Of a DNA stretch of 64,000 bases, positions 3,440 through 36,066 are shown piece by piece. The DNA comes from Catajapyx aquilonaris. Taxonomy: Eukaryota. Within the stretch, counting starts at the first letter, position 1. Each line of letters opens with the position of its first letter. The stretch spans positions 1 through 64,000 of the forward strand of contig KZ538389.1 in assembly GCA_000934665.2 (NCBI GenBank), read 5' to 3'. Position numbers and translations under genes: made by a program. A model generated the notes under the pieces. It had not been told where the DNA came from. It ran no database searches and worked only from the letters and a program-made list of their open reading frames with translations.

Positions 3440-4029
3440 TAAATAAATATCAATTTATGACTCAAAAATACCTTTCCACAATATGATTAGTCTATTCGTC
3501 ACTATTTCTCGCGGAACCCCTGGCGGTTGCTCGCGGAACCCCGGTTGAGAAACGCTGCTCTATAGCTCAACGATTAACTGACCTGCTTCTCAGGTAGTTT
3601 ATAATCGGTGGAGGTGTTCCAAAGTTTCCACATTTAAGCCATTTTTATCATTAGTAGTGGTATTACTATGAAGGCTATTATTGATATCGATAGTGTGTGG
3701 TCATTTTGGTTTGCTTACCTTAATTATTTTGCAGCATCATTGGGATTTTCCATAAGACTGTTTTCCACCATACTATTGTCTGGTGTGAAGTCAGAGTGAA
3801 ACCCATCCATATAGAGAGTCGTGTATAATATAGGCCACATGCGGTAACGAAACGCCTTTTTAAAGTCTTTCCCATATTTTCCCGTATTTTGTACTCGGAA
3901 AATAGCTATTGTTTGCATTTTTAAAATTGCACTATTATCGATGCCAGAACTAACAGCCTCTAATATTGCGGAACATGTTTCCAAATCGCGGAGTACTCAA
4001 TGTCTGTTCCACCTCATTTTCGGCCTATA

Positions 4030-4952: not shown

Positions 4953-5012
4953 TACGTCACAGTGTACCTTGCCGGAGGGTACAGATGTGACAACTGTCCC
5001 AACCCCCTTCAG

Positions 5013-5487
5013 GAGAAGAAGGCCCCCCGATGATGTTAGGCGGCGGCGTGTGCCTGATCCCTACCAGGCGCCCCCCTGCCCCTGGCACACCCCGACTGGA
5101 GAGACAACAGGCCTTCTTTAGCCCCGAATGGGAGCTACCATCTTCTGGTTCTGGCCCTCCGTCCAGAGACACCTCGCAAGAGACCTCACTGGATGCCCCC
5201 AGCTCGCCCCTGGGCATGCTGGGCTCCAGCTCCGAATGTGGGGACGAGCCAGCTGTGGTGACAGAGATATACCTGCAGGTTCCTCAGCTGAGTAGGAGGG
5301 ACCGGGCAGCCTCAGTGGATTCCTCTTTTGCCAAGATGGCACGCGATGACTCGACCGTGCACGCCACGCTGGGACGCAGCAACTCCATGGAGCCAAACTG
5401 TTGCAACAGCCCCAGGTCAAGATCAGTCGACATCGTCCTGCCCACCGCGGATGACACTGGGTACAAGGTGGCTCCGCAGAGGCCCAA
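5013..5487 (+). CDS. rdgA: DGK 5' exon (Ser/Pro-rich N-terminal region of a long isoform)
   Basis: Open frame (...LQVPQLSRRDRAASVDSSF...RSRSVDIVLPT...), acceptor cccccttcag ending at 5012, donor CAA|GTATGT at 5488 in phase 2, which joins in frame to 29968 (AA|G = Lys). The motifs resemble what I recall of arthropod rdgA N-termini; not checked by search. Confidence 0.75.
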
Positions 5488-8391
5488 GTATGTGCAAGTT
5501 GGTGTTTTTGATGGGTGGGAGCATGCACAGCCTAAAGCGCGCTCAGTCCTCTATGATCTGGCAGGCAAATCAAGAGACCCATACACTTAGCTGGTTGACT
5601 GAGCGAGAACACTACCATTACAGCTGCGTTGTGGCAGAGTATCTGTTACGGATTTTGCTGCACTCAATCGACCTTTGCACAGGTAGAAACCCCGCGAATA
5701 TATCCTAGGCCATGACCCATTTCTGTCACCTGCATATTCTCTAACTGCTTTGGTTTTTATACTCTAAACGAAATGCAGAACAACCGCAAAAATGTTGCCC
5801 AAACTAGTGGACGCGTCCCTTATTATTCCTGGCAAATTGCTTCGCGGCAAGTCATGTTGCGCCTGAAAGTTGGTTTGCCTGCATGACAGGAGTGCCGTTT
5901 TGGTAGCCTGCACTACAGGATGACAGATGGGGTCTACCCATGTTCGCGGATTACACCATTCACTTGGCGGTTATGCTTATCTATTAATTCCTATTAATCC
6001 CACAATATTTGAACAGATATTGTTAACAATAGCATGCACTAATATGATTGCTTTTCAAGGTCAAACCAGTCCTTTGAATTTCGAGTTCATCAGGTGCGAT
6101 TGGCAGGCGATTCAGAGTGTCTAAAGACAAGCTCTGCGATTAGCGGCAGGATATTATACTGTATTGTACTCTTTAAAAATAAAGCCAATTATCTCAGAAA
6201 TAATGAGGCTCCGGGAGACTGAGGGCCGGTTGTATGAAATCCAATTAGGGAAAGATCTACCTTTGTAGGTACTAAAGATAATCCGACGTAATCGAAGATT
6301 TCCGCCTTAATTTGCGTTCAGATATAACCGGCCCTGACTTCTGAATATACCAGGAACATTTTAGTCATCACCGTGGAAGGTTACCGATATGGCCTATGAT
6401 AATGATGAGTTTTTTTTACTGTTATAGACTTGACACTGCAAGCTAACAATGTGTGATAAAATGATTGCATAACAATATATCATACTGTATATAACTTGGA
6501 CTCAAAATAGGGTGGTTTTGTGGCGGACTGCAATGGTGTCTTCAACACATGCGCCCAATGACACCATTCGGCCGAAACGAGCAAGAGAACGGGCAACATA
6601 AGCCTGGCTAAGTGGATTAGAAGTGTTGTACTGATTAGTTGAACCCTCTATCCGCCATGTTGTCCACTGGCCTTGACCTTTCTCTGTGCTGGAGGGGGGA
6701 AATATACAGAGGTTGGTGACTTGACAGGCCGCAGAAACCGGATTCACTCTGCAGGGATGCTGTTCGATCCGGGGCCTGCTGCTGGGCATGGCTATGGTGT
6801 TGTGTAGGCTATGAATGACGTTAACGCGCTATTGCACTGTGGCTTGTCTGTAGATATACGCCACGATTAATATCCGCAGGTTATTTTTTTTCATTATAGG
6901 AAGCTGCGATAATGAGTTATGAATTTTACACGAGGCAGCGGTGTTAGTTTTATTTATATTTAAAAAAAAAATCCGTCCCGCGTACTTTCCGCAACTAATA
7001 AAATTGCTGTTTTGTGTTTCGGGTACCTTTCGTATACGCTGCTGTAATTGATTCGTCTATACAGTAGATATAGTGTAGCCTACTCCTAGTTGGATCATGA
7101 CTCAGGCATGCCTTTCGGTCGAATACGTGACGCTAATTCACGCCAAAGAGGAGCTAATTAGTACACATAAACCACCTTAGCGATGAATTTTCATCCACCT
7201 TAAATGTTGCTAGGCTGCTTATTGAATCAGCATATATATACAGACTCCGTAACACGATGTGGACGGGAAGGCACCTTTCGTCAAGAATAGCGTGTATAAC
7301 GGTGTGGCTAATTGTTTCTGCTAAAAGCGCTGACTCGAACGTCAAGTCCAAATTCTTGTCTGTATCAAAACAGTCCGATTCCACTCGGATAATCACGTTT
7401 CTGCTCGAGAGCACGTCCTCTCTCCTTCACTTCCCATTTGCCCCGTCGGTTGACAATTGGAGGGTGGTGAAGGTGGGGTGGGATTCTATCATGGTTGAAG
7501 GAGAGCTTGCGGAGAATTCTATTAGACGACACAAACTCCTTCCAATCCCCGCCTCAGCTGATCCTCTCCTTCTCTCAGCCTCTGTCGCCACCCCATGTAG
7601 ATTCTTTAGAAAGTTGTCAGAGTGCAAGAATGCAATCGTTCCGCCCTGAAGAAGACCTGCACTCGCTGGGTCGTGAAATACTCGGGGACCAGGAATTTTG
7701 CGCACGTCGGTTGACTTCAAAGTCCTGATTGGCCCAAGACTGCGTGGCCGACCACAGTTATGCGCTGAGGACATTCAAATCAACCGGGATGATCAAGTGG
7801 CCTGGGCGGTGGATTCAAGGTTACCCTCTAGCCCTGGTTGGCTGGGATCAACACGTGGCCTAGATGGAATCGCGTTGATTGGTTGGGAAGTTTGGGCCCA
7901 TAATTAGGTTTTCTGGTATGCATACGGCAATCAGGTTCCATGCATACGCTCATAATTGCCGGAACGAAGCGGGAATAGTCTAAAAAGTCATTCCAAATGG
8001 GAAAGCCATGTAACCACGTAATATTTTAACCGGGTGATATTTCCCTACGGGATTTTCTTGCATGAATTCCCCGTTTCAAGTTAGGCGCTAAATAGCTCAT
8101 CCTGTGCAGAACCTGACAACAATAAATATTCCCAGCACTCGCAACTCCCCGGTATAAAACCGGCTGACAACAGAAGACACACACACAAAAGCATGTCAAC
8201 CCCATCGTCACCGGGCCCTGGGCAATATTCATGTGACGGTCGATGTTCACCCCTCTCCCCCCTCCACCTGTTATTTTTGGCGACACTTCCGAAGTCCATC
8301 CAATTATCGGATTGGTTGCATGCAAATTTATGTGGAGTGCCTCACCACAGCCCGCCTATGTAGTTTTGCGCAGACCAGTCTATATACTATA

Positions 8392-8468
8392 CAGGGTGAG
8401 TCCGCTCCCAACTCCGATTTAAGAGCTGAAATGTACATCAATCGCGAGTAAATCCCTGACTCACCCTG
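8392..8468. mobile_element. Minimal 77-bp Tc1/mariner-type MITE
   Basis: TA-CAGGGTGAGTC ... GACTCACCCTG-TA. Confidence 0.7.
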
Positions 8469-10365
8469 TATGGGAAGCAAGCCCTCGATTCCCGCTGCTT
8501 TAATGGCTCGTTAAAAAGGCGGTGTATGCCGAATGAGAAGGATGCCGAGTTCGTGTGCAAAAAAATGGCCAACCCCAGAGCTAGCTAATGAAGTGCGGCT
8601 CACTCTCAGATGTTTGCCATTTTACGACCCTGCTCTTGTCAGCTAAGTGCTAAAACGGAGGATCCAGGTAACAATCCGGAGCTGTATTTGAAAATGGGTG
8701 GGCCTCGCCCCTTTTTATCTGGCAAACCTGTGCGCGATCTTTCCCGGGGAGAAAAGGTTGCGAAATATTTGCGCCGACCTGATATTATCGTCATCTGAAT
8801 TCTGAAACCTAAATTGCATGGCGGGGCAAAGTGTCCTGTGATATAAATGGTTGATGCAACCACAACTATTTGGCGTAGAAAAAACTTTCATCCAAATATT
8901 TAGTTGACGGGTTTTTTAAACCAAATATTTAGTCAGCACAACCAAAACATGTATCATGACAACCAAATATTTGTAGAATATTGAATATCTACCGGACTTA
9001 TTATTTCAACCTATTTGGTTGAATGAAACATTATTTTGGTTCGTTCTACTTTTTTGAGGAAATGTAGTTTTATACAGACTGCTCCTGTCGACACACACAT
9101 TCCTTACTGTTATGCCTCTTTTTTATTTGGTTTCTCTCAGGCACTTTACTCGGCTATAAGCCTACAAGGTGATCCATTTTCTCGGCCTGCGTTTATATAT
9201 ACGTGAGTGGAACATCTCCCGAGAATAAGGGTGGAAAAAAGCTTCATCGCTGCAGCAATCTGCGATGTGATGGTTGACTTGTCTTCTCCAGGAACTTCCT
9301 TTTATTCCAGATTTATGACCCGAGAGCTATTTATGAGATCTGTATGTTACCCCGCCCCAGTTACGGGGTTTAACGAGAAACAGAGTGATTTATGGGCGAT
9401 ATTTGCCCAAGGTGGAGAATGTTGTCGGAACAAAATGACGTCCCCGCCGCGTTTTAACAGCCGCCCATAAAAATCGCGTCACATCATTTCGGGGATATTA
9501 ACCCCATTGGTGGCTAATAAGAGAATGTGAGGGAGTTTCAGAACCCCGATTGTGTGCCTATTACCTGCCGCACCTAATTGCGTCATCGATAGCACCCTTG
9601 CCAAGCATTGTCTTAAAACCGTATATTAAATGGTCGGCAATTCGGTACCGTCACAGTTCGCCCGATGCACATTCGCCCGCCATACCAAATCGCCCGCCAT
9701 GCATATTTTCCGTACATTATGTTTCAGTTATCGGTTCTACCTGTATATCAATAACATAAAAATAGCAGTTTGTAATAATATCGGACGAAGGGGCATCCGT
9801 GAACGGTGACCATTGAACCATGCAAATGTACGGCGAGTATGCACGGGGAGCGAATGTGCATCTGGATAATTGTTATGATACTGCCAATGCAGCCCAATAT
9901 TTTGGATCTGTGGTTTTACAGTTAGTGTGCGTGTTATGTTTCAGAGTGAAATATTTGGACTGTTGTCTTCCATCGTGAGAGACTTTAATTGGGCTGGTGA
10001 ACGTCGTGGCCCGGAATAAGTAGACTCGGAATTGTTTGTTATTTCGGCCTCTTCCCACTCAAAGGGAGCGTGTAAGAGGATTTTTCTCGGTCTTTCTAAC
10101 GTCTCCATTTCCATCGATTCCTTCCCAGCCATAATCTTCTCCTACTAAGCCGGTATTATCCGCCAGCTTTCTCAGTAAGTTTAGTCGCATTGACCAAGAT
10201 CGGAGAAAAGTACAGGAACTTGACGAGGATGTTCAAGCGATAGTCATTATGAGACAATAAAGCAACGCGTGTGTGATATAGAAATAGATGCTACAGGCTT
10301 TGCTCCTATAGGCTGTTTTGATCATGTCCACCAGCCCACGTTGTACAGTGGGAGACCAATATATT

Positions 10366-11040
10366 AAGGGAACAGTAGGTGTTGTCAATGGAGTTGCTGA
10401 ATGAAACTTGGCACAATAATATAGACAGGTAAGTTATTAAACATAATGCAAACCGTTTCTGCGGAGCGCTACAAGGTCAAAAGTTATGACCTCTCGATGT
10501 CAGCCCGGACAGCTTACCTTACGAGCGAAGTTTCAGATAGCGCACTCAAAAAAGCAGACATTTTATTAGAGCACTGGAAAGGGATAATTACTCGGATTAC
10601 AACGAGCCAAATTGCTAGATCGAAGAGAAAGCAGGGAAACTGTTTTTAAATATATTTTTGTCGGCTCGGTAGAAGGCCCATTGCATATACAAAAGTTTTA
10701 GTAGTATAATCGTGAGGCGGTAAGGAAATTGATTAATCGCAGTCGTAGACTAATCGAGGGTTTTTAAAGAGACTTTTTCAAATATGCTGCGATCTGGCAA
10801 TTTAGTAATCAGAGTAATTATCCTTTTCCAGTGATGTAATAAAAGGTCTGCTTTTTAAAAAATGTGAGATCTGAAACTTCGTTCATAAGGTAAGCTGTAC
10901 GGGCTGACATTGAGAGGTCATAACTTTTGGCCTTCTAGTGCTCCAAAAAATGGTTTGCATTTTGCTTAATAACTTACCTGCCTATATTATTGTGCCAAGT
11001 TTCATTCAGCAACTCCATTGACAACACTTACTGTTCCCTT
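10366..11040. mobile_element. Foldback MITE, AGGGAAC family, copy 1
   Basis: Near-complete palindrome AAGGGAACAGTAGGTGTTGTCAATGG ... CCATTGACAACACTTACTGTTCCCTT; related copy at 46240. Confidence 0.88.
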
Positions 11041-12159
11041 GTGAGCAACCGAAATACTGACGTCAATACTGTAGATCGGAACGAAGTAGAACATCTCTGT
11101 GCGCTGGAAAAACAGAACTGGTTGAATATATGTTACCTCAACCAAATATTCGGCCAATTTAGTTGAATTTGGCACATTCGATATATTTTTCTGAGTCTGT
11201 ATAAATTTTGCAGCCCACACTCTGCTTCCTACAGAGGTATATATCAATCTGGTTCACCCGCAACATTTTGCGTTTGGGGCAATAACTGGCACAATATACA
11301 CTATTACATTTGACAAGGCCGGCGAGTGTTTCTGACAGGTAGTGACGTCACACCGGGAGGCAATTGTCATCGGGCCGTTGAGCGAGCGCACTTTTCAGCA
11401 CGGAATAAATGCCTGGGTCCTAACCTGTGCTCAGCGCAAAATCTGATACCTTTGAAGAATATGAAGCCGTAATTAGCCGTTGTTGTGGCGAAACGTAATC
11501 ACGTTAGACGACGTCCCGCAGCTTTGATTGGCCTCCACCACTTTGTGCACTTTGTGGAGCAAGGAGGGCCCTTCTTTTGTCTGAAAACCTTATCGTGTTC
11601 ACGAGGGGATGCACTTCAGTCATCCACAAAATTACGCCTGCAGAGAAGAGGCCAAAAAGAAAGATTTGAAAATATTTTTTTGTTGTTGCGAAGCAGCCCC
11701 CGCTAATAAGGCCATTTCGTAGGTCTTATTCCGCAAGCAGACCTCATTAGTCTCTGCTTATGAGGAACGGGACACAATTATTTCTTTTTACCCAGCCGCA
11801 ATTACTCGCTCCATTTTGTGCTCAGGCCGTTGTTTTCGACCTGTTTTGAAATCTGGACGGGAATAGGCCATAACTTTTTATTGGATAATGGGCCCTGGCA
11901 TTGTTCGGTTCTCACGACGTTGCTGAGGTGTGGTGCCAAAAGCGGCAATCCGAATTTACGATCGCTTTGGACTGCAATTATCACTAAGAGTTTTTCCGCG
12001 TGAAGGTGCATTTGCGATAGCTCGGGGTGCCTCACGACACGTTCTGACCCCATTGCCAGCTTTTGGATGTGGTCACGAGGCGGTATGAGTGGGTTGTAAA
12101 ATCTTGTAACTGTCCATTGTCGGTTCCAGTCCGAATTGAAAGTGAAAAACCATCCATAA

Positions 12160-12599
12160 CTTGGTTCAGAAATTTAACCTACCGTCGCGTCGCGTCGCTT
12201 TGGGAAATGATAGAGAGGTTCTAGACGATCACTTTGAGTATATGTAACATGGGTCTCCGACGCATAGTTACCGAGATAATTATCATTAAATAAATTATCC
12301 CAGCTTATAGGTTTCGGATACTGCTTCCGATACTTCCATCGCCTAGGTAATTCCCTGCTACACCTAAAAGGATCGTAAATTTCTATTAAATTACATGGTA
12401 ACATCTTGAATTTAAATGAAAAAGGTAAGGTCGCGTGGAGGGATGCCTACGTGCCAGGATATTTAATACCTTGTGTTTGAAGCACATTACCCAGGTAACT
12501 ATGCGTCGGAAACCCATGTTGCATAATATGCTCAAAGTGATCGCCTAGAACCCCTATATCATTTCCCAAAGCGACGGTAGGTTAAATTTCCGAACCCTG
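12160..12599. mobile_element. Foldback MITE
   Basis: Arms ggttcagaaatttaacctaccgtcgc... / ...gcgacggtaggttaaatttccgaaccctg-ta, over 100 bp of inverted similarity. Confidence 0.8.
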
Positions 12600-12746
12600 T
12601 ACTTTGCCCATTTCGTCCTATCCTGATTCTCGTAGTAGTAGATATTCGTATGTAGTAAACTCTGCCAAGAAATTCATTTTACCATTTGAAAGTCATTAAC
12701 CATTTTTGTATTACAAAACTGAGCAACGGTATTAATAACAGCCTAC

Positions 12747-12832
<86 letters not shown>
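12747..12832. repeat. (ATT)n directly followed by (AAT)n, self-complementary microsatellite
   Basis: About 14 ATT units then about 14 AAT units with no spacer. Confidence 0.95.
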
Positions 12833-12834
<2 letters not shown>

Positions 12835-14693
12835 AGTAGCCTATACAGCACTATATGTTTGAATTTTGGGTGTCCTCTCTTGCGTATTCAGCATAGATTT
12901 GTTCATAAAACGGGGTGAGTGGCATTTGATATCTGGACTGGATTTAGACGGGTACTAGTAAAAGCCATTATCACTGCGAGGTAGTGATTGATTTTATTGC
13001 TGGTTCCGTATTCCGGGTGAGATTGGACGAGCTTTTATTGAGGGCAATTTGGTAGTTATTTTCAAAATACTTAGCTTCCTAAAGCCGGGCTCTCCACATT
13101 TATGAAGTTATGAATCTGGAAGTAGTTAGCAGGAGACATTTAAGGGCTTTCGCAGCGTTTCCCCCACCTTCTCCTACATGCTGTACCGCCAAATTTACGC
13201 AAATGACAGCAATAAAAGGCGCGATGGGCCTATACATAGAGTGCATGTGTGACAGTATACGGGACACTGCAGGTGTTGGATAAATCTAAATATTGAGCTG
13301 CCTCCTTCTGCACCCTGCCGCACGTGCCATGTACAGTTGCATGCACATTATGGCTGCTGGAAGAAATAGAAGTGCAGGTGGTTTCGATAGTTAATGTAGC
13401 ATGAACTGTGTAAAAAATGCGCAAAATTGAGTTACACGCTGTATAATGGTAATGTACAGGGAGATTCTGCAACCTCCTCAAAAATGTTATATAGAACCCT
13501 TCAACTTTGCAGATATTTAGTGAAGTACGCTAACATTAACATGCAGACTACTTATCTCCATAACGACGCCCAATCAACTGGCGTAGATTCTAGAATTTTA
13601 TCGCAACATAAATCCGAAAGGAAATGCGCATCGCCTTTTGCTCCAAGCTGCCCTGTACATATTATCCGTTGGGTTTACCTGTAATACAGTATATCCAGCT
13701 ATTGAGCTTGCAACTGTATTATTTGCATATTTGATTTAAAAACCTAATGAAATACTACAGAATCCATTACAATGGATTCACATTTGTCGGGGGGGCTTGA
13801 TTAGTTATCGACCAATAACATCGACGAGCTTTAAAATATTCCGCATCTGACACTCCCTCATTAATTAAAATCACTTTCCCATTATTTCAGGGGGCACTTA
13901 TTATACTTGCTCCTCATAGCTCATTCATAGATAATCGATACAGCATTTCCACTGGGATCAGAACGCGTGAATTTACGGGATATTTAATTTTGAAAATACG
14001 CATCATACAATAGGCGCGATTAGCTCGAAGTTTGAGATAGAGATCATACCTATACATGAGTATAAATTGCTGCTGCCTGTGATACGGCATGGCTACATTG
14101 CTATATGGCACAGATTGACCGGAATGATTTGCCTAATTCAGGACGGAATCAAAATTTCACAACCTTGAATCTGCTCATCAAAACAGCAAGATAATGGTCA
14201 ACAAAGCACGTTATTTTCCTTCCCTTTTGTCATGTTCCATCTCTAATGCAGTTCTTGCCCGATATTCAAGTGCAGGAAAAACGGAAAAAAGGGAGCCAGT
14301 GTGCCATATTGGTCTAGACTCTAGAGGTAAACAACTAGACCCTTTGGTGCATGCCAGGTGTAATGGATTAGAGAGCATTAAAGGCAGATTCAATAGAATT
14401 TAAAGTGAATGCAGTGTCCGTGGGAATTTAAGACAAATGTTTTCAGACGGTCTGGTAAAACATAGCTTACATTTGACGACATTTGATCCTTTGGAACTAG
14501 AATTGAAATATTGTGGATTCTAACAGACGCAATATTTGTTCCGAAACTGAAAACTGGGGACAATTACTCGGGAATGAACACAGGTGGGTATAGGCGGCCG
14601 GGAGTGCATGCACTTAGTCAACATCCATGTGGCTGGAGGGGCTCACGTTGCTGTTTGCTCACTTTGGCGCTTGCACTGTACATAGAGATTGGA

Positions 14694-14821
14694 ATGAGCC
14701 CTTCCAAATGCGAAACATGGCCAGAACCAGATGAAGGCGAGAGACATGCTGTGGCCGCAGATTGGTCGCAGATGTGGGTCAATGGACCAATCCGGCTTCG
14801 ACGACTACTCACAATGTCTGG
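14694..14821 (+). CDS. Candidate alternative first coding exon (MSPSKCETW...RLRRLLTMSG)
   Basis: ORF ends at donor TGG|GTGAGA in phase 2, in frame with the acceptor at 29968. Start codon uncertain because the frame is open further upstream. Confidence 0.45.
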
Positions 14822-15841
14822 GTGAGAAACGGCAGGAGTTTTCAGCTAAAAAGCTTTCGCCGGGGGAATAATTCATGCTAGGAAATCCGGGGCTCAAGTG
14901 CGGAGGAGTTTGTGCATGTGGCCTACAAGTACTGAGGTGCATGTGCAAATCCATTCATTATGGAACGAACTGGCCATTACCCTGGCTGGTTTCATATTGC
15001 TGGCGGCCGCCTACAGGTGGCGGAAACAACGTCCGGTGTATATACATATATGTAGCATATGTCGAGCAAGCGCTTTGGACGGATTGTGCTTCGACAGGGG
15101 GCTCTGGAGGAACGCCGCCTCTACTGCTGCTTTGAATAACACATCAACCCCCCCTAGCTTTCTCGGTATTCTTTTGTCTATCTCGCGAACAAAGCGTCGT
15201 TTTGCAGGCAGTTGCCAGCGGGAACCGTACCCTGCTTTGCACTTTGATGGGGGACGTCAGCCAGGAATGAGAACTGCTGCCCAGGTACTAGGCCTTTTTT
15301 TTTTTTTTTCAAGGGGGGCCACAGGTATTTTGGGGCCGTGCCGGAATGACGTCACGAAGTTTTGGGCCTTGTCACGTACGACCTTCAGCCACCAGACGTG
15401 CCTCTGACACCAGTACACTATTAGCCCGCTAATCTGCAATTATCGGACATATGACTAGGAACAAAGGACAGCTGACAGCAAAGTGTCTACAATGCGAGAC
15501 AATTTCAGTCGTGAGCGCCGTTCACTCATTTTGCACGTGAATGTGAATAATTTGACAGTCAGCTCTTTTCGGTGACGTTATATCTGAACGGCCCCTGTTG
15601 CCTACAGCCACATTCATTATTGTTTATGTAACCCGCAGGCAATTGGAAAGCAAATGCAAGGAAACGACGTGGATGGTCCTCTCGACAGGCTAATATGTGG
15701 GTGATGAAAGCAGGTGTTGGCAGCTGTGTGCCACATGCCCAGCTATGTAATGTAACCGACCAGTTGTGTGCCGCTCTGCTCGAAATAGGGCGGCAGGCAG
15801 ACAGGCACGTCGTCCCGAAAGAATTGTTATAAATTGTCCGG

Positions 15842-15927
15842 ATGGATTTGTACGTTTGGGACAGGCTGGACCACCCCTGGGCTCTGATGACTTTCACGGA
15901 ATGGGACACCTTGTTCCTGAGCCGCCG
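15842..15927 (+). CDS. Candidate alternative first coding exon (MDLYVWDRLDHPWALMTFTEWDTLFLSR-R)
   Basis: Upstream in-frame TAA at 15830, ATG at 15842, consensus donor CCG|GTAAGT in phase 2. Splicing gives ...SRRKAIA, similar to the RKAI junction of DGK-zeta. Confidence 0.6.
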
Positions 15928-18435: not shown

Positions 18436-19389
18436 AGGGAGATCGGGGTCGGTTATAATAGGGTACGGTTGTAACATCGCCAATAATAAATTATACGTTT
18501 GGAACTGAGGACCTGAAGCTGAAACTCACACAATACGTGTGCCAGTATGGCCTCTAAGCCACGCCAAACTTTGGCTACTCGTTTTTGTTTTTTGTTTTTT
18601 GTTCTTCCATATGCAAAAAACCAAAATCAAGGTGTGTTCCCAACTTTCGTGAGTGGCAGTAATCAAGTGATTATGCGGAGGGTAGCGGTGTTATTTAAAT
18701 GCCCTTGGTATAATGAGAAAAGTTCTTGTAGAGGGGTCACACTGACGCGACGGTAGGGATGACGAAATCATATGCACAGTTAAAAAGTAGGAAGCATATC
18801 TACAAGACAACACACAATGGGGACGGTTGTAACAGTTTCCTTGGGGTCAGTTGTAACATGGTAAAATCATGAGAGAGGTAAAGTCTGTTTTCAGATGTTA
18901 CAGCTACATATTTGTTTGGATATTGAGAGTAGAAACAAATATTATTTTGTGCAATAAAGCCTCATAATCAGTTTGTCGAAGATTTATATCAATAAAAAAT
19001 CCATTTTCTTGTAATACTTATCTGCTGATTAAATTCCTGTGTATCGAGAGATAAATATAGTAATCCAGGTGGACCAAGTAGGCTATAAGACAATTGTCTA
19101 AGATGAGTGGGTATAAACCGTTCTCGATATTACATTTTTCCCTTAAGACATAGTGTTACAGTCGACCCCGTCCTCTATGATGGGGTCGGTTGTAACACTC
19201 CGCCTTGCCTTGGAAAAATATTTATACCCATAAATCTATCAGTTTTTAATCTTAATATTTGATCATGTTAATTTTACAAGGATGAACGTTGCCTTATTTC
19301 CACCATGTCATAAATCTTTGCCTTAATGCATGTGTAACTGAATTTAAAAATCCGGACTAAAAAGTGTTACAGCCGACCCCGATCTCCCT
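18436..19389. mobile_element. TA-flanked MITE (pogo-like)
   Basis: TA-AGGGAGATCGGGGTCGG ... CCGACCCCGATCTCCCT-TA; internal repeats ggggtcggttgtaac. Confidence 0.85.
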
Positions 19390-19396
19390 TACTATA

Positions 19397-19930
19397 CAGG
19401 ATGTTCCCTGTAATATGGGACAGACTTGTAGGGGTAATAGAGGGGACCAAGACAAGTATTTTTCACATAGGAACCCGTGTCCGGAAACGCCATCTGGAGG
19501 GGGTAAATAGAAGCGGAACGGGTGCGTTCACACGCGTCAGGGAGGAGGCGTTAGGCGAGCGGACCGTTTAGTTGCTAGGTGGCCCGCAGATAGTAAACAA
19601 CGGCGCAATTACCAATAACCTGGCAATAACAGAGCCGTTGTTTACTATCCGCAGGCTACCTAGCAAGCGGGGCTTTAGTTGCTAGGTGGATCTGTTGTTG
19701 CCAGGTTATTGCGAATTGCGACGTTGACTATCTGCCCGCCAGCGCCACCTAGCAACTAAACTGTCTTCTTGCCTAGCGCTTCCCTCCTGACACGTCTGAG
19801 CGCACCCGTTCCTCGTCTATTGACCCCATCTAGATGGCGTTTCCTGACACGGGTTCCTATGTGAAAAATACTTGTATTGGTCCCCACTATTACCCATACA
19901 AGTCTGTCCCGAATGACAGGAAACACCTTG
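19397..19930. mobile_element. Foldback Tc1/mariner-type MITE, copy 1
   Basis: TA-CAGGATGTTCCCTGT ... ACAGGAAACACCTTG-TA, palindromic throughout; second copy at 49846. Confidence 0.88.
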
Positions 19931-19932
19931 TA

Positions 19933-20147
19933 AGGTGAAGTGGGGTAAGTGCATACACGGGGTAAGTGCATACACGGGCCGCCATATTGGAATGAAAATG
20001 GCTGACGACACCAAAACGCGCCAGGCACTCTTTGTCTAGCTGCACACAACATCCCCGGACGCGTTTTGGTGTCGTCAGCCATTTTCATTCCAATATGGCG
20101 GCCCGTGTTTGCACTTACCCCGTGTATGCACTTACCCCACTTCACCT
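19933..20147. mobile_element. 215-bp near-perfect palindromic MITE
   Basis: TA-AGGTGAAGTGGGGTAAGTGCATACACGG ... CCGTGTATGCACTTACCCCACTTCACCT-TA. Confidence 0.9.
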
Positions 20148-22889
20148 TATATGATTTTGCACTGAAACTAAATGCAAAATCGTCGCCATCTTTTTCAGCG
20201 ATAGTACACCCAATGTTGTCTCCCCCTGTATTAAAATAGAAATTACTGTGGGCGGGGTGCTTTTGTGCGCACAGAGATTGATGTGCTGAATACAGAATCG
20301 CACATGCCTGCTTCTCACGCTCTTTTCAACCCATTTTTTGAAGGCTTAAAATAATGCCTATAATACTGCTGTGCTTGAGCTCCGTATTCACTTTGAGTTC
20401 CACTCCTTGACGTTATTGATAAAGCTCTCGACTGTTTCTCTACAACCTTTGAAATCCCCGGCTGAGTATATGGGACTTGGAATCAATACAGTTTCCTGGA
20501 AGATGGTCATGAATGCTTATGGTTTTGGTTTGCTTGGCTGGGGGTTGCCCCTAGGCAGCCCAGCCTATAGCAGATGGTGTCAAAATTGCGGAGAATCCCA
20601 GTCCCAACTTTCCCGCCATTAGATTTACGGGGCCAATCCGAGCGAGGAACTGCTCCGTCTAGTCCTGAGGCAGTCCTTGGTTACAGTTGTCTGACGATTG
20701 ACCTGGCTCACCAAAGTGGAAACGGCGTTGAAGGCGACAGAGAGCACACCCCACAAGTCGACCGTTAAATCAGCGACGATGGCTTGACTGAACATGGCTT
20801 GATCAGGAGGAGTATCCCTCCTCAAATTTCGGCAAATAGTTGAGTATGTATGAGGAGTAATTCAGCGAATCTTATCCGATTAAATGGCAGGAAAGCAATT
20901 TGTGCCGTTCAAGCCTTACAAGTTGTGATGTAGACCTTTGCGCTATTCAGCCGATCCGTCTTGTAGGAGCTTTCAACAATTTCATCGAGTGTATACATGC
21001 GCCTATTCCGCATGATTCACTTCATCGTTACTGACGTGCCTGCTTGCTTGTTGTAAACGTATAAAGCGGAACTAATCTGGATCGTTGAAAATGCGGCAGA
21101 TGTAAGATTTTCAGCCCGGTTTTTTTGCAATTTCCAAAAGAAAAGCTTAGGCTGTGTAGTTGTGGATTCGAAGAGCGTCTGCCAAAGAGATTGTGTCTGT
21201 CGGGTGCGCTTATCAGACACAATAAAACTCTTTTGCGGGATTTCTGAAACATGCCTACTATTATTGGCAAGCCGCGGAGAAAATCTTCTGCAGAAAAAGA
21301 AGGCTTGTGACACACCTTTCAGCCGTTTGTTCGTTTTTTTAAACTGCATTTTTGCATTATTGCGCCACTCCATCCCTGCATGCAGGGTTATTACACGCGT
21401 GCATTGTTATTCATGTTGTACGAAATAAGTTTGTCACAATCGCATAATTGATTAGCCAAGTCCATTCAAATTTCCATAACGTGATGAAATTTATTTGCCA
21501 TTGAATAGTCACTGTCAGTTTTCACTATCTAATCACTGCTCTCTAAAACCGAAACACGGTTTAGCTTTTTTATGGTGTCATTTCCAAATTGGACAGGGTT
21601 TTATCATTTCTGTGTTGTATGCAATAATGTGGTGATTATTAAACAGTTGGCAGGCTGCATGACGTAACTCGTATTTTCATTACACGAACCATTATTTTTG
21701 TGCAGGATAACGTTCTCGTGGCACTGACAAAGCTCTTGTAGAAAAAAATACTGGTTTTGTCTTGTTCCTAGAACCACAACCACCCAGACCTGTTTCTCAT
21801 ACGAAATAACAAACTTGATAGAATAGACTCGGTTATAGCAAATTCTGTACCTTCCCAGAATCTCCTGAAGGATCTAGTGACCTTCGTTATATTCCATGTA
21901 AACAAACCATATTTCATGACAATTCAAAGAAGTGAATGGACCATATGTCAAACTAACGTAATTCCACGAGTCTGAAAAAAGCTCGCCTTTTCTAACGGCA
22001 TGTATTGCGTCACAAGTAAATTGCAACATCTAAAAGTGCCAGGCAGCAAGAAAAAAGCGCCATACCGTTGGTTTTTATATCTCAGAAATCGAAAGAAGCA
22101 TCTGTTCTCAAGTTGCTTCAATTTGTGGCACATCTGGAGATTTCTCCAAAGATTGGATCTGGAAGGTGAGAGGATGGGCGGAAGAGCGGTCGTCAAATGT
22201 AAATCTATCCGGAATATTTCACATTTTCCCAACCTGCGTTAATAAAATCTGAAGGTACAGTACGACAAATTTTTGTGTCTCTGTCGTTGTGGTTGGGGTC
22301 AATTATTAACAGGGACAAAAAAATCAGTTTTCCCCGTATCCCAACATGAATTACAGTGCAGGATTCGTGTGTTTTTAATGCTAAAATGGCCACTGTTGTG
22401 GGTCATCAGCATTCCCTGCACAACCTGTAAGGTGCCCTATCAATTATGGAGATGTGTAACTGGTGAGTCTGAGTCGTTAAAATTACACGAGACCCCAATG
22501 ATCCGTTCAAACCTTTTATGTAAATCGGTTTTTTGTTTCACCTGAAAACGGTTTTTTTAACACACTAAATCCGGTCCCCGTTGCATTCACGCATTCAATT
22601 TGATCCAAGTGCACTCAGACTCAATTCGCACAGCTCACATAAAATCGCTTCCAAACTGGTTTTATAAAAATGAGGACAACATAGGCGTCGGGCAGCCATT
22701 TGTCAAAATTACCCTCGTTTGCATTTAAATTCCATTTTTGTGCCCTTGTAATCCCAGTTGAAAGCGCCCTTGGTGAGCGTTTTCAGAGTGAAAAGTTACT
22801 TGTAAACAGGCCTGCTTTAAAGCGATGGTAGGCATACACACCGGGTAAACCAGAAAGTCCGTTTGAAAATTTTGATTATTTATACTGGA

Positions 22890-23172
22890 ACCGAAGCAAG
22901 TTGGTGTAGGGGTTAAGGAGCCAGACTGCTAATTGGGAGGTCCTGGGATCAAATCCCTGGGCCGGCAACTCTGACCGTGGTTTTCTGTGGTTTCCCAGGG
23001 TCCTTCCAGGAAAATTCCGGAGTTGCTTACGTAATTAATAGGCCACAGCCGCTTCCTTCCGTCCCTATCCTATCCCAAAGCCCAGTAAAATGAAAAAGCA
23101 AAGAGTTCCAGGCAAAACAAACTTCCCCCCTACAGAGCCGAAAATGGCTGATAACGGGGTATGAATTATTAT

Positions 23173-23220
<48 letters not shown>
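22890..23220 (+). mobile_element. tRNA-derived SINE family A, copy 1, (TAC)n tail
   Basis: A/B-box-like head (tggtgtagggg ... gggatcaaatccc), shared body ggttttctgtggtttccc...aggccacagccgcttccttcc, short flanking repeat tactgga; near-identical copies at 50679 and 59349. Confidence 0.9.
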
Positions 23221-23221
<1 letters not shown>

Positions 23222-25527
23222 GGATATATAGGTCGATTTGTGCTCATTTGTATATACGATGTGGCAATAGGGGTAAGTTGGTGCATCTTGTTGTGGAGCG
23301 GCATCGGTTGCCGTTCAGAATGTTTTGTGCCTGCGGAACAAAAGCGCCGCTGCTCATTAGCAATTTAATCGAGTAAAAGTTTTGTGCAGTTAGTGAGTCG
23401 AGAGGATGGATCGCCTGAATGAGCACGGGAGCTGCTCATTTCCTTGCATCCACTCCCATTTTGCCAAGGATGAATTCGGGTAAATAGCGACCAAAATCTG
23501 GTCACATGGATCAAGAAGGCAAAACCAGCGTCATCTTCCGCCGTGATTTGTGACTTTGTGGACTGGTGGCGAGGAGCGAACCAACTCCAGTTGGCTCAAG
23601 CTACCCCACATGGCCAAAGTACCCCCTTGGTAGCTTTTTTCATTGCCCTCTGCGCTCTCCCAACTCCGATAACACAACGGGACAAAACGACAACATTCTG
23701 CGGGGTGTAGTGGTAGCGTACATTTACACGGCGGGAGAGCAGTTTTCAGGTGGGAGTTTGGGCTCGGCATCACCTAGATACATACACCTTCATCCTCCCA
23801 CGCCCCTTTGTCCCCGCAGCATGCGCCGAGGATCAATATCTGGCGACAAACTCTTAAAGAGAGCGACGGGCTTCATGTTGCCATTGATGGCGGATGGAAT
23901 GGAGGTCGTCGGTGAAACGAACAGCCGGCTGGACAATCGCCAGAAAAGGGGAGGGGGAAGCGTACTATGTGTATGATGGTGTTTTTTCTGGAGGGGGAAG
24001 TTGGCCCAAAACGTGCTTCCGGTAAAGGTTATTGTGTCAAGGGAAGGCCCAAGATGTACTCTGCGGTTAACCTTCAGAGGAAGATGCCTAAATTGACCTC
24101 GTGCTGAGGAGTCAGCCAGATTTCAGGGACGGGAGTTACGTCACGTGGAATAAGTGCAAGGGATGCCATTACCATAGTGCACACCTAACGGTAAAGGATT
24201 GACCGCATTTCACAGGCTGTGTTGGGTTACAAGTATGACTCCGGTACCGTCCACAATAGTTTTTTGCAGGCTGTAGCTATAGGATCTTAGTCGCAATTTT
24301 TTTGGAAAATAAAACAAATTCATTATCATAAAGTCATTAATTTTTATTATTGTATATATTATCCGTTACATTATTTGAGGGGTGTTGTGGAAGACGTGAT
24401 AGGCTAACCCACATTTTTGTCGTTTTTGACCTGAACAGCTAGCAACTATGTAAAAGACATGACAACCAGTTTGGTATATTCCAAGTTCACGTATCATGCA
24501 CGAGGCGGCCACACGGACTATATAGATCAAAACCCGCATTCGCTGGAAAATTACACTTTTGTGGGTTGTCACGTTTTTCCACCACACCCCTTATTTTTAT
24601 TTAAGTTTTTTGGTTTCCCAAAATTAAGGAAAGGGGGCCTTTGGCTCATCCTGGCTACGCCCATGGAAATAGCGCTTTAAAAAAATTAATGAACCATGTG
24701 TTTCGATCCACAAAGTATCGTCCGGCTCGTACATTTGAGTTTTAATACTCTAATAATGTGTGCAAATGTAACGTGAAGTTATTACACTGTGCGTTGGGGC
24801 ACCTCCGGGTGCTAGTTGTATGCATCGCAAACACAAGTCGGCCATGTTTCACCGAATAATTAGTCGGAAAGTCATTTTGGCGCAGCTTAAATCATGGTTA
24901 ATGCCTCGATTTAGAGGATGTGAACCGATTGGCCGGTGTTGATATTGGCCCCTAGTAATTCGGTTTATGCGGATCTTTTTGGCATACATCCGGGATTTTA
25001 TTTCAATTTGGCCCATAAACCTTTTTGGGCCTGAACTAGGCCTAGTCGCCATGTTTAATGCATGCTCGTGGTATCGTGACATCCGCTCGAATTAGTCTTT
25101 CCTACGGGCCATCCCGGTAGATTAAGGCGGGCAAATGGCGAATTGAAACCCCACGGAACTGCCGGTTTCCTGAGTGGGGAGAGGAGGGGAAGTGGGGAGG
25201 CATGGGAAGAAAGGGGTCCTTCGTTTGATGGGCGTGTCCATGGCCCCATCCCGGGGATATGATGAAGATTGAAGCTGGAAAAGTGGTTGGAATTCCGGCG
25301 GCCGAGCTGCAAAAGATGAAGTGCGATCTCTTGGGGGGTGTGGATGTCTACTAAGTCGAGCTCAAATTGCGGGAGGGAAGCGGGAGGGATGCGGGAGGGG
25401 AATGAAAAGATGACTCTCCCCACCCCACTCCACACTATGGGGACAGCTCGTGTCACATGTGCCTAGAAGCCTTTCAATTCCATGTCCACTTTTCAGGACC
25501 AACAAATAGGGTCCACAAACGCCAGGC

Positions 25528-25528
<1 letters not shown>

Positions 25529-25591
<63 letters not shown>

Positions 25592-25595
25592 TAAT
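25529..25595. repeat. (AAT)n microsatellite
   Basis: Direct reading. Confidence 0.95.
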
Positions 25596-27833
25596 AGCGA
25601 AATTGGACTAACTTGTATGTGAGCAACCACCGACATTTCACGATTTTGTGAAACTGTGTTGCGTTTGTTTTACGAGTGTCGTCACCGGTACTTATACCCA
25701 CATTGAACAAACCTTCCCGTTCCTCTTTCCCAGTTGCGAGAAGTACTCTAGTGCCATCAGGCTAGTGAAAGTACATGGACTGAATCTTTTATACACCATC
25801 ACGATGGCACTAGAGTGTCTCTTTCACCAATTTGGGGCCCAAGTTTTCCCATAGGGTCTTTATGTGAAAGGTTTCACGTGATGCTATCTCTCCATTAGCA
25901 CTTTGGACCCTCCCCAAAAAATAGCGAATGGAACTCCCTCCCCTTTCGTATTCCCTCCAGGCGGAATTCCCCGTCATTTTTTTTTTTTTGCCATCTTCGG
26001 CGTCCTTTTGTGAATATGGGGCTACCGATGCTGAAGGAGGTTGCTCGTACACAGTATATGCGACGAGAAGGTAGATAAAAGGGCGTAAAAAGGGTGGTAG
26101 GACCCGTTTTGCGGTGATGAAACCGTCTTCTTAATAACCGCCTGTAGGCTTTCTTCATTCATTTTTTTTCTTTCACTTGGTCGTAATATGGACGTGGCCC
26201 TTTGATGTGTGCTCTATAAGCTATGGCTAGAGGATTATTCATGTTTTGATGCCAGATAGGGCGAGAGTTGAGGGTTTTCACCGCGCGGTGAATCATTAGC
26301 TCTAATTAGCAGGCCTTTATGGTGGCGCTATACATGATAGAAACAATCCTGTTTACAAGAAGTCTACTTTAGTCGCAATCATCTGAAGGTAGCGTGACTC
26401 ATTGGTTACAGAATTTTACGTAACCATGGGTGACCTCAGCCTTGAACAGTTTTTCATTTTTGGCTAGGTCAAGGCCGCCTATCTCGTTTCCAAGCAAGAT
26501 TTTTGACTCCTCAATGCCACAGGCTATCTGCCATATTGCTACGCTAATTAGCCTAATTAACTGACATGTATTTACATGAGAGAATATTACAAAATCACTC
26601 GTGACATTTATTGTCTCTTTTTAATAGAAAAAAAGTTAAGCTAATAATGAGGAAAGGTTTGGATGTCTACATCGACCATTAAAAGAAACAGGCCGTAATT
26701 ATTTTATATCTTGGGAACCGCCCTGATTAGTGCGAATTTTGTTGCCGTTTAATTACGAGTTATAACCGGATTTTCAGCGCAGTGATATGCACATCACGAA
26801 ACTGGGGGGTTGTTGGGATGGGTTCTCACAACATGCAAAGCGTGTGTCTTCGGCGTTATCGGCGAATTCCATACCTGGTTTTTGCAGTTATGCCAGGAAG
26901 TCAGATTGATGACGTCGATGAATTGACGTGGAAGGGTGATGGTTGTTCATTTACGAAACATTCTTGGTTGGAAAAAATATATGCCAGCAATAGGTCACGT
27001 ACTCAAAGCATGACGTGATTTGAAAGTGCGCCTTTCATATCGGTACGTGCATTTTCTGTGCTTCACACCTTTTTATAAGTGGGAACAGAATTTGATTTAC
27101 GCTAAATCCCTATGCAAACTAACCCAGCATAACTTTAACATTAGTCAGCCTTATATAGCTGCATATATACCTACCGAAATGTCCAGGATATGCCTGGCCG
27201 AAACTTTTTTTGGCAGCTAGTAACAATTTTGTACCGCTGAACTTTGCATTTTTACTAATCCAGGTAATATCAGTGTTTAATCAACAATAAGGTCAGGTGC
27301 GCACTAAAAGGTATGCACCGGCTTGGTGTATAATAGAGAAAGAAAGATTACGCGATGATCCCAGTTGGTGATGCCCCAATTCTAAAATGCTCAGGCACAC
27401 ACTGTGTCGTCACATACGAGATAAACTCCCACCTGATACCAGTTCAACATCCTCGGAATTACATACCACTGGTGATTGGGGCCTCATCAGCGGTAGTCGC
27501 TGCAAGACTACCACGCGTGAATTTTTTTTAAAAAAACCGGGCGCCTTAATATATTTTTTTACATATATATCGGTTGGTTAAATACTTTCTCAAGGATATC
27601 CAGTGTGTGCAGGCAGGCCTATCTGGATCGCAGGTACCAAGGTCAGGCTGTGGTGTTGTGTTTGAAGTCGGGTTGCGTACACAGCGAGCGATTCGTGTGT
27701 CCAGCGGCGGTGTGCATAGGGTTAGCCCTTTTGTGGCGGTGCATCCGGATAATTGTTGTTGTAGAGATGTGGATCGCAGTGGACAGGCTGGGTTGGTGAT
27801 GTTGGGCAGATGGGAGTTGTGGAGGTGGTCAGC

Positions 27834-27880
27834 ATGGGGCAGACCATCTGCTGCTTCACCTATGGGGCCATCTCTGGAAA
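27834..27880 (+). CDS. Candidate alternative first coding exon (MGQTICCFTYGAISGK)
   Basis: Donor AAA|GTGAGT at 27881 in phase 2, in-frame ATGs at 27810 and 27834, upstream in-frame TAG at 27762. Confidence 0.55.
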
Positions 27881-29967
27881 GTGAGTAACTGTATAGGTCA
27901 GGACTTTCATTATTGTGAAAGTTTATGGGCAATCTATGCAGGAATTCTGCAATTAGCAGTATTGTCACGAAGTGTGTTTAATTCAAACGTGCGGGTGTCA
28001 ACCGCAATGATGTAGTTTTTTTTAAATATACATTTCATAGTAGGGTATTAATATCCGATGCCTTTTTGCATGGGGTATGCGTAAATTTTTCGGTTTAATA
28101 AAACATTGAGCGCAGTGATTAACTCGGTGTATTTATAGTCGCGGAAGTTTTTATACACAGTGGAGTATTTCGCAGCATTATGCATAGGACGTCGGTAATT
28201 ACATCTGGGATGAGGCCATTTCAAATGCATTTACATGACATAATTATATATGAGCAGATTGCAAGAAGTTTTTTTTGCATATGTATATGGGCCGACGTGT
28301 TTGCCCCAAGGAAGTGTCATTTTTTCCTTAACAAGGAAATGTCGCATGCGGGGCCTTTAAATAATCCATTTGCATCGCACTTGCGTCGCAATCCTTTTTG
28401 CAACCAGCAGACGACGTCATATTAACACCATTTATTGACAAGTTACGAAACAGACTGGCGGTGATTTCATTGAAGAGTCTGTCGCTCGGGTGACATCCAA
28501 GACTTAACATTTGCACTGATGCATCCTTGGCGACCCAATGGACATCGCACCTTCATAAGGTGCTCGGCTTAATTGAGATGTCAGGTGCGCCTAATTATCC
28601 CTGGCATACTTCCGACACCATCGGGTGCTTATCGTGTCACATCATGCTGGGCGTGGTGGGCTACTTCTCACATTTACATTTAGGCAGACATTTTTCCCCG
28701 TAGCTTTTAATGTGGGTGAGAGTATGGGACGGGGTGAGTGTCATGTCAGTAACGAGCCCATCCCCCTCCCCCCACCCCCTGGAGAGACTGCACGTCGGCA
28801 TTAATTAGGCCAAGAGATGTAGGTACCGCCGTACTAGGGTACCCAGCTTTTGATGCAGCCTCTAACTGTGCTTGCAGTCGTCCCTTCAAGTGGTGCTGAT
28901 GACACTTCATTAAATGTGAATCACCAAGAAGTGGGCTTTGATTGAAATGGTACGCCTTCAACAAGGTGGACTCGGATTGTTTGCCTCCGTTTTATCACGT
29001 GTCTTGATGGAGATAACTGCGCAACTGCATAAGATAAATTGTGCGCTGTTTATTGAGGGTGAAGATAGACTAGGATTTCCCTGACAAGGCCCTATTACTA
29101 TGGGCGGGGGTAGCAGGGGGGCTAACGAACTTTGCGGAGGAGAATTTATGGCCCATGAAAGGAAACAAGGGATGACACCGTCTGTAATACCCTGTCGGAT
29201 AGCGTTAATATTTTCTTAAATATGTTTTGAAAGCGGTTAGAAGTGATACCCTACCACCTCTTTTGGCTCAAAATGTGTTCTGCCATTTTTTGCCCAATAT
29301 TTGAGAGCATTCGGCACACGTTTACCTTGGGCAAAATCCGTGGAAAATTGATGCAGCCTGATGTTACATTAGAGTACAATATTACTCAAGAGGCCCTAAT
29401 ATCCTGGTTTTGAGGACGGTATCAATGGCTGTGAAAAATAAATCTATATAGTGTCGGACAGGACGCAACTGCATAAACGTCATGTTCCAAAATTAGAGCT
29501 CGTTTTTAATGCACTGGTTGGGAGTGACTGGTTAAGCGTTATCATTTTAAATGACGCCTGGCGACAGAGGCTGATGTATTACAATGAATATTTTAGGCCT
29601 GTAGAGAGTATATTTGACTGTGTAGACCCCCAACCCAGACTCTCATCCTGTTTTACTATCGATCCAAATTGCAAAAGTTGCGTAAATACAGAGAGTGCAG
29701 ACATATTTTAATCGATATACGCGGGCGCAGAATTGGGAGAAGACCAAAGAAATATAGAGAGGAAGCGCGTTACAAATAGTACTTTCTTCCCTGTATGTCA
29801 TCTCTCGTCCTGTCACATCACAGCTCGACATTCAACGGATCCGGACTGGCAGTCACGGTACTTAAGTGTGTGTGTGTATATATATGTGTGTGTCAATATT
29901 GTATGTGGCTGTATGTTTGTGAGATAATCGGGCAAAGGATAACGTGGTTTTTTTAAAATGGTTTCAG

Positions 29968-30130
29968 GAAGGCGATAGCGTCGGAAGTTCAGATCTGCGG
30001 CGAGAACGGCGAACCTCGAACCCTTCGAAGCACTGTGGAATGGAGCGAAAGCGTCGTGAATGGCGACCACCTCTGGGTGCCCACGTCGGCTTCCGGTGAC
30101 CTCTGCTACGTGGGAGACGCCGATTGCTGC
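29968..30130 (+). CDS. rdgA: DGK first constant exon, start of C1a domain
   Basis: tttcag|G...TGC|gtaagt; translates KAIASEV...LRSTVEWSESVVNGDHLWVPTSASGDLCYVGDADCC. Confidence 0.92.
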
Positions 30131-35874: not shown

Positions 35875-35938
35875 GTATGTATGACAGGATCGTTACATTC
35901 CATTGAAATAATTTACTGACCTTGAATTTTCTTGGCAG

Positions 35939-36066
35939 GTAATCATTGTAACATTGTAGTTCCACCAACATGGATTGTAAAATTACCAAAGCGAGGTAGC
36001 TTCAAGTCTAGTATAAGGAAATCTCCAAAGAAGAAATCAAGCAGTAAAAAGAGAAGCAAAGAAAAG
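35939..36066 (+). CDS. rdgA: DGK exon, MARCKS-like basic region / putative NLS
   Basis: ggcag|GT...AAG|gtacgc after a 64-bp intron; NHCNIVVPPTWIVKLPKRGSFKSSIRKSPKKKSSSKKRSKEK. Confidence 0.92.

Follow-up and report, generated by a model that had tools for sequence, protein, structure and literature searches.

A predicted type IV diacylglycerol kinase gene of Catajapyx aquilonaris and a candidate alternative first exon in its 24.5-kb intron

The two forms of mammalian diacylglycerol kinase (DGK) zeta, zeta1 and zeta2, differ at their N termini, ahead of a common body, and these variable N termini are not known to be lipidated. Zeta1 (104 kDa) and zeta2 (130 kDa) are presented as products of alternative splicing in a passage of PMC5614480, with a citation of Ding et al. 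(1997; PNAS 94:5519). Here we describe a gene of the same family in a stretch of 64,000 nucleotides from Catajapyx aquilonaris (GenBank assembly GCA_000934665.2, contig KZ538389.1, positions 1 to 64,000 of the forward strand; hereafter, the window). Its likeness to mammalian DGK zeta is that of one gene with splice forms of different size. Alternative N termini set where a DGK acts and hence which pool of diacylglycerol is removed. A preliminary description of this DNA had proposed that an acceptor at 29968 is fed by an array of alternative first exons, all in phase 2, whose donors lie at 14821, 15927, 22462, 25320, and 27880, in addition to an exon ending at 5487. All of these coordinates and motifs were found in the sequence. 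On balance, we favor a simpler picture, in which the window covers the 5' part of an unremarkable type IV DGK gene, the extra candidates are mostly products of chance, and a frame at 27834-27880 is the sole credible member of the proposed array.

The proteins found to be nearest to the product of this gene come from crustaceans and insects and carry the annotation DGK zeta, eye-specific DGK, or rdgA. These arthropod proteins have the same domain order and the same exon-encoded segments as the gene described here, from which they differ in being only 72% identical in the first constant exon and 40 to 49% identical in the N-terminal exon. In beetle contigs, the whole N-terminal extension is a single open reading frame (ORF), whereas here it is broken by an acceptor at 5012/5013. 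Of the five species for which two or more proteins are listed, four have different N termini that meet exactly before the residues of the first constant exon, as follows.

Penaeus vannamei: three distinct N termini at the junction (e.g., isoforms X3 and X14)
Daphnia magna: two distinct N termini at the junction
Daphnia carinata: two distinct N termini at the junction
Neocloeon triangulifer: four distinct N termini at the junction (isoforms X2, X6, X7, and X8), one of just 7 residues
Schistocerca americana: one N terminus at the junction, in both proteins

In Penaeus, the common part is preceded by K, R, or V. Each of these can be encoded with G as the third base, in agreement with the split-codon phase described below, as far as can be judged from protein sequences. 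A layout with a variable N terminus and a constant body is therefore already annotated in many arthropods and known for the family, which makes an internal first exon in the 24.5-kb intron plausible a priori. We consider it likely that the intron between 5488 and 29967 holds at least one alternative first exon. The use of alternative N termini by DGK zeta and rdgA, which the preliminary description had cited, is borne out by the isoforms of the relatives and by mammalian zeta1 and zeta2. The layout that it had proposed for this locus is likewise plausible, being annotated in four of the five relatives, but the particular array that it had listed found no support.

By homology, the gene on the + strand of the window is a type IV DGK of the zeta/iota/rdgA type from an invertebrate animal. 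The window has a GC content of ~0.43, long introns, copies of a short interspersed nuclear element (SINE) and of miniature inverted-repeat transposable elements (MITEs), and 310 N. Fifteen exon segments are colinear in tblastn alignments with the arthropod proteins P0023 and P0003 (the latter from Penaeus), at 42 to 86% identity. The parts of the gene on which the following analyses depend are listed below.

5013 to 5487, + strand: coding exon of the long extension (acceptor ..cccttcag/G at 5012/5013; donor ..CCC AA/GTATGT, phase 2)
5488 to 29967, + strand: large intron of 24,480 nucleotides separating the long-form exon from the first constant exon, placed by colinear high-scoring segment pairs (HSPs)
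29968 to 30130, + strand: first constant exon (acceptor tttcag/G AAG GCG at 29967/29968; donor TGC/GTAAGT)
34238 to 60536, + strand: constant kinase body of at least 13 further exons, placed by colinear tblastn HSPs and Pfam domains

The constant body contains C1 pieces, a basic MARCKS-like stretch, DAGK_cat, DAGK_acc, a DGKI domain, and ankyrin repeats. Pfam domains were scored on the exons from 34238 to 60536, each translated singly, which gave the DAGK catalytic domain (PF00781; 65.9 and 29.0 bits, with a cutoff of 23.6), the DAGK accessory domain (PF00609; 49.4 and 31.0 bits, with a cutoff of 27), the DGK iota-like domain (PF23578; 49 bits, with a cutoff of 27), and ankyrin repeats (PF00023; 31.2 and 24.0 bits, with a cutoff of 21.1). 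Two exon pieces scored 23.5 and 21.9 bits for the C1 domain (PF00130), under its cutoff of 26.5, because a single exon carries only part of the domain. The exons with these pieces are 73 to 78% identical to the matching segments of P0023 and P0003, and PF00130 stands in the precomputed Pfam lists of both proteins. Between the C1 and catalytic domains, the exon at 35938-36063 encodes a stretch rich in Lys and Ser, which aligns with its counterpart in P0023 and P0003; such a stretch goes by the name of "MARCKS homology" in passages of PMC7555651 and PMC12574262. The relatives end in ..ETTV, ..ETSV, or ..ETVV (i.e., a PDZ-binding tail), and here the last exon lies past the 3' end of the window.

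The first constant exon opens with a G that is the third base of a split codon, followed by AAG GCG ATA, in a frame set by the arthropod homology. Over 55 residues, its identity to Penaeus P0003 is 70.9% (E value, 6.5e-19), and a protein search with this exon returned 33 matches to type IV DGKs among 49 candidates, with a best identity of 72%. Homology and Pfam domains thus uphold the earlier proposal of a DGK gene with a constant phase-2 acceptor at 29968.

The exon at 5013-5487 is open in frame from a strong acceptor, and its first ATG (at 5030) stands 458 nucleotides before the donor, which gives phase 2. It aligned by tblastn to residues ~146 to 385 of 11 arthropod long isoforms (E values of 1e-13 to 2e-10). 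Its blocks ..RQ.AFF.., ..RDRAASVDS.F.., and ..RSRSVDIVLPT..YK.. are common to the relatives, in which the latter two likewise belong to the long extension. A word-indexed protein search with the exon retained 126 of 985 candidates at an E value of ≤1e-3; the top matches by E value were ~40% identical, and shorter partial alignments reached ~50%. An index-free search yielded 40 representatives at ≤1e-3 and none at 1e-10, with alignments mostly at protein positions 180 to 550. At the junction, residues 207 to 372 of P0003 correspond to 5087-5488 and residues 375 to 429 correspond to 29966-30130 in the tblastn alignment, with 2 query residues unplaced. A phase-2 splice junction from 5487 to 29968 is well supported by this homology on either side of the large intron.

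From these alignments, the exon at 5013-5487 is predicted to encode the final ~150 residues of the conserved extension found at the N terminus of the long form. A conserved long-form head precedes the region equivalent to this exon in 93 of the 185 fetched proteins of relatives. The head was not found in the window, either with a profile (hmmsearch; best E value of 0.17, inside the ORF of exon 5013-5487 itself) or by tblastn with the proteins of relatives. Since the exon aligns to the middle and end of the relatives' extension, it is probably not a first exon, and we favor an internal coding exon with further coding exons beyond the window. The position of its first ATG, only 17 nucleotides past the acceptor, with homology beginning ~14 residues on, weighs against this assignment and would suit a first coding exon behind a 5' untranslated exon, which we judge to be the less probable arrangement. 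The preliminary description had counted the exon ending at 5487 among the alternative first exons; given the alignment to residues ~146 to 385 and the missing head, it probably belongs to the interior of the long isoform. For annotation, this would place the exon in a long form that starts outside the window.

The five extra first exons that had been proposed lie in the large intron, on the strand of the gene.

14574 to 14821, + strand: candidate of 82 codons plus GG (donor TGG/GTGAGA, 7.0 bits; ATGs at 14574, 14694, 14772, and 14814)
15842 to 15927, + strand: candidate of 28 codons plus CG (donor CCG/GTAAGT, 10.5 bits; ATGs at 15842 and 15887)
22446 to 22462, + strand: candidate of 5 codons plus TG (donor CTG/GTGAGT, 10.5 bits; ATG at 22446)
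25259 to 25320, + strand: weakest candidate, of 20 codons plus AA (donor GAA/GTGCGA, 3.4 bits; ATG at 25259)
27834 to 27880, + strand: best candidate for an alternative first exon, of 15 codons plus AA (donor AAA/GTGAGT, 9.0 bits; second in-frame ATG at 27810)

Donor strength was scored with a generic matrix, whose frequencies are approximate, and chance expectations were taken from a second-order Markov null. The pattern of phase-2 candidates is no more than would be expected by chance in an intron of 24.5 kb. The + strand of 5488-29967 contains 38 GTRAG sites, which close an ATG-open frame in phase 2 in 14 cases, in phase 0 in 12, and in phase 1 in 10. The 52 intron sites scoring at least 6.3 bits close such frames in the proportions 12/17/12 (phases 0, 1, and 2), and the null gives 12.3 ± 3.0 for phase 2. 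When the threshold was lowered to the score of the weakest listed candidate (3.4 bits), 219 intron sites qualified, 63 of them ATG-open in phase 2, where the null gives 55.6 ± 7.3. Among the 12 donors of the gene inferred to be real, 11 scored from 4.4 to 10.8 bits and one scored 4.0 bits; each was taken as the best-scoring GT beside an end of homology, which makes this calibration of the matrix somewhat circular. Five of the 12 depart from GTRAG (two GTATGT, two GTACGC, and one GTTTGT), and the pool of possible donors is therefore large. The earlier list thus comprises 5 out of at least 12 to 14 equally qualified sites; donors at 6093, 18260, 18752, 19934, 23479, and 26070 were not on it.

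Searches for features beyond an open frame gave little to add to the candidates. None of 19 ORFs of at least 100 amino acids (stop to stop) in the intron carried a Pfam family (22 were scanned between 60 and 28425, on both strands). The proteins of relatives (33, and then 148) gave no significant tblastn match to the window in 1-5012, in the intron, or in any candidate. Two weak matches were judged to be noise, one at 22267-22416 (18 hits to a Cys-rich segment; E values of 0.17 to 1.6, 21 to 25% identity) and one of 21 residues between 14727-14786 and the part of P0017 that corresponds to the constant exon (E value, 0.36). The candidates bear no sequence likeness to one another and therefore do not form a duplicated variable-exon array, of the kind known from the protocadherin and UGT1 genes. 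As a promoter marker, the ratio of observed to expected CpG revealed no clear islands, with values of 0.5 to 1.3 scattered over the region, and codon-usage likelihood does not discriminate for frames as short as these. The five-member array of phase-2 first exons thus does not stand as proposed: there is no phase-2 excess, and four of its members have no features beyond an ATG, an open frame, and a GT. Only the frame at 27834-27880 stands out from chance, and it alone has a start that resembles a targeting signal.

The donor of candidate 27834-27880 scores inside the range of the gene's real donors, and its start codon has an A at -3 and a G at +4. The candidate ends in AA, as does exon 5013-5487, so that the codon at the junction would again be Lys. 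Its peptide opens with Met-Gly-Gln-Thr-Ile-Cys-Cys, which matches the N-myristoylation pattern G-{EDRKHPFYW}-x(2)-[STAGCN]-{P}. Among 1,246 ATGs on the + strand, 27834 is the only one that combines this pattern with a nearby Cys, and 3 of 2,473 ATGs on both strands do so; with the 20 ATGs of the candidate set, 0.024 such starts are expected by chance. The start resembles the dual-acylation N termini of the SH4 type found in Src family kinases and G-alpha proteins in its Met-Gly, its small or uncharged residue 3, and its Cys at position 6 with an adjoining Cys. It differs from them in having no basic residues at positions 7 and 8, and the match is one of a motif on a hypothetical N terminus. 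None of the fetched relatives begins with Met-Gly...Cys-Cys, the nearest being the Met-Gly of Neocloeon X8 and the Cys-Cys of a short Schistocerca N terminus. One literature search for a natively myristoylated type IV DGK found none; the matches listed concerned MARCKS or other topics.

We observed separately that Schistocerca P0014 to P0016 have a short alternative N terminus with two Cys-Cys pairs. These pairs may parallel the candidate at 27834 and hint at palmitoylated short isoforms of type IV DGK.

In the model that we propose for the locus, exon 5013-5487, preceded by coding exons outside the window, would be spliced in phase 2 over the 24.5-kb intron to 29968-30130. The large intron would be the site of the alternative promoters and short first exons of the family, each N terminus being joined through the same acceptor. 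With a promoter of its own, 27834-27880 would place the Met-Gly...Cys-Cys start on the constant body, which looks like a signal for N-myristoylation together with palmitoylation; the product would be a short isoform that is constitutively anchored to the membrane. We infer both the use of any internal first exon and the lipidation from the sequence. In its fullest form, the model has a promoter ~2.1 kb upstream of the constant exon that yields an isoform with an N terminus of 16 residues, myristoylated at Gly2 and palmitoylated at Cys6/Cys7, permanently anchored to the membrane beside the long form, while an excess of donor motifs in the intron (see below) marks further first exons, some of them noncoding, or U1 sites that protect the intron. 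This fullest form is speculative, and we think it rather unlikely to hold in every part. If true, a type IV isoform with a lipid anchor would offer a simple natural means of keeping the kinase at the membrane.

Several observations count against 27834-27880 as a first exon. The lipidation motif was picked after the peptide had been seen, so that its probability is a post hoc value and overstates the significance. Two ATGs lie close upstream: that at 27767 heads a short ORF, and that at 27799 is out of frame and open as far as the donor. Translation from 27834 would be impeded by them if the transcript began more than ~35 nucleotides before it. The codon score of 27834-27878 is 0.30 per codon, in the top 2% of the null, but 0.21 and 0.27 were obtained in the two other frames; the score is therefore not frame specific, reflects local composition, and lends no support. 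In addition, the collections searched contained no protein from the same species or a close relative, the best identities being 72% and 40 to 49% in the two exons compared. With these points set beside the donor and the peptide, we lean slightly against 27834-27880 being a real alternative first exon, while still regarding it as a serious candidate.

The other four listed frames are probably chance occurrences. Candidate 15842-15927 has a strong donor, but neither a Pfam family nor a tblastn match to the proteins of relatives was found for it, and its codon score reaches no higher than the top 7% of the null; it is unlikely to be a real first exon. For candidate 14574-14821, none of 172 proteins sharing words with its 82-amino-acid peptide matched at an E value of ≤1 (a negative of little weight), no Pfam family was found, and the codon score was 0.015 per codon, versus 0.06 to 0.44 for real exons; we hold a first exon here to be highly improbable. 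The same low expectation applies to candidate 22446-22462, which is very short; a copy of a tRNA-derived SINE lies ~430 nucleotides downstream of it. Least probable of all is candidate 25259-25320, whose donor falls under all 12 inferred real donors (4.0 to 10.8 bits) and is equaled or exceeded by 219 intron sites; we would be very surprised to find it in use.

Separately from the question of phase, donor motifs were overrepresented in the large intron on the sense strand. The + strand of 5488-29967 has 15 GTRAGT motifs, compared with 7.9 ± 2.7 in the null, a count reached by 1 of 100 null sequences, and the - strand has 8, compared with 7.4. At a matrix score of at least 9 bits, the intron has 16 sites on the + strand versus 6.5 ± 2.3 and 6 on the - strand versus 5.8. 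Downstream of the intron, the + strand has 17 GTRAGT motifs versus 12.0, five of which are real donors. Two of the 16 strong sites form a tandem duplicate, and one lies inside a MITE. The strong donor-like sites show no phase-2 enrichment (5/8/4 by phase). Recursive splice sites were rejected as the source of the excess, with none of the 16 strong sites having an upstream pyrimidine tract. U1-binding sites have been proposed as a property of long 5' introns, and the excess could reflect either such sites or extra first exons, some of them noncoding. It could also be a threshold effect, since it is gone at a cutoff of 6.3 bits (52 versus 45.1 ± 6.6).

Were the array as listed real, most of the donors at 14821, 15927, 22462, 25320, and 27880 would terminate first exons with their own promoters and give rise to differently targeted kinases. 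Relatives with up to four annotated N termini at the junction would accord with such an array, as would an excess of consensus donors confined to the sense strand (both for GTRAGT and at ≥9 bits). Against it stand the absence of phase-2 enrichment in any of the three sets of sites (12/10/14 for GTRAG, 12/17/12 at 6.3 bits, and 5/8/4 for the strong sites) and the existence of at least seven unlisted sites that are equally qualified. Moreover, four of the five members have nothing beyond their ATG, open frame, and GT, the 82-amino-acid peptide has no relative, and the donor at 25320 scores under every inferred real donor. We consider this array very unlikely. A variant in which the intron does hold real first exons, but other than those listed, fares somewhat better, because GTRAG is absent from 5 of the 12 inferred real donors and because only 4 of the 12 ATG-open phase-2 sites of at least 6.3 bits had been listed. 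Such exons would have non-GTRAG donors or would be among the unlisted frames at 23406-23479 and 6044-6093, the former of which has a good start context and a codon score in the top 8% of the null. Yet no single site stands out: codon scores are negative for 5927-6091, 18547-18750, and 25928-26068, the site at 10428 is in a MITE-like repeat, and that at 19934 is in another repeat. This variant seems to us unlikely, though less so than the array.

The opposite possibility is that 5488-29967 contains no first exon, that the long form is the only form, and that all candidates, 27834-27880 included, are due to chance. The number of candidates equals the null expectation, the codon score at 27834 is not frame specific, out-of-frame ATGs lie upstream of it, and some relatives are listed with a single N terminus (e.g., both Schistocerca americana proteins), all of which accord with this possibility. 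On the other hand, four of the five multiprotein relatives have at least two N termini at the junction, a lipidation-like start is paired with a strong donor in the right phase where 0.024 such starts would be expected, and the sense strand has more consensus donors than the null. We therefore view a complete lack of internal first exons as possible but rather unlikely, and retain the ordinary type IV DGK gene with 27834-27880 as its one credible internal candidate as the preferred reading. Short frames that combine an ATG and a donor in long introns, such as the other four, should be annotated only with RNA support.

Repeats and an assembly gap were identified in the window as follows.

22890 to 23183, 50679 to 50973, and 59348 to 59599: three copies of a tRNA-derived SINE, 84 to 89% identical, ~250 to 290 nucleotides long, with a trinucleotide repeat tail
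10359 to 11045 and 46258 to 47038: MITE-like element 1, in two introns of the gene
19388 to 19932 and 49837 to 50374: MITE-like element 2, in two introns of the gene
37946 to 41699: nest of direct and inverted repeats in the intron at 36334-45120, with arms of 150 to 270 nucleotides that are 95 to 98% complementary
~43250 to 43560: assembly gap (a run of N) in the intron at 36334-45120; single N near 39600 and 49550

The head of one SINE copy, at 59354-59425, was the only match in the Rfam and tRNA scans (32.5 bits) and was called tRNA-Ser (gct) by ARAGORN. Both MITE-like elements have inverted terminal arms of 93 to 189 nucleotides that are 86 to 95% complementary. The top donor-like site of the large intron, CAG/GTAAGT at 10428 (12.7 bits), is located inside a MITE-like element. 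The nest at 37946-41699 resembles a repeat cluster of recent origin, either palindromic or rearranged. The ratio of observed to expected CpG is mostly 0.8 to 1.2 over positions 1 to 31000, and the mean for the window is 0.73; the 3' gene body (31000-64000) would therefore be more CpG depleted, which may reflect gene-body methylation.

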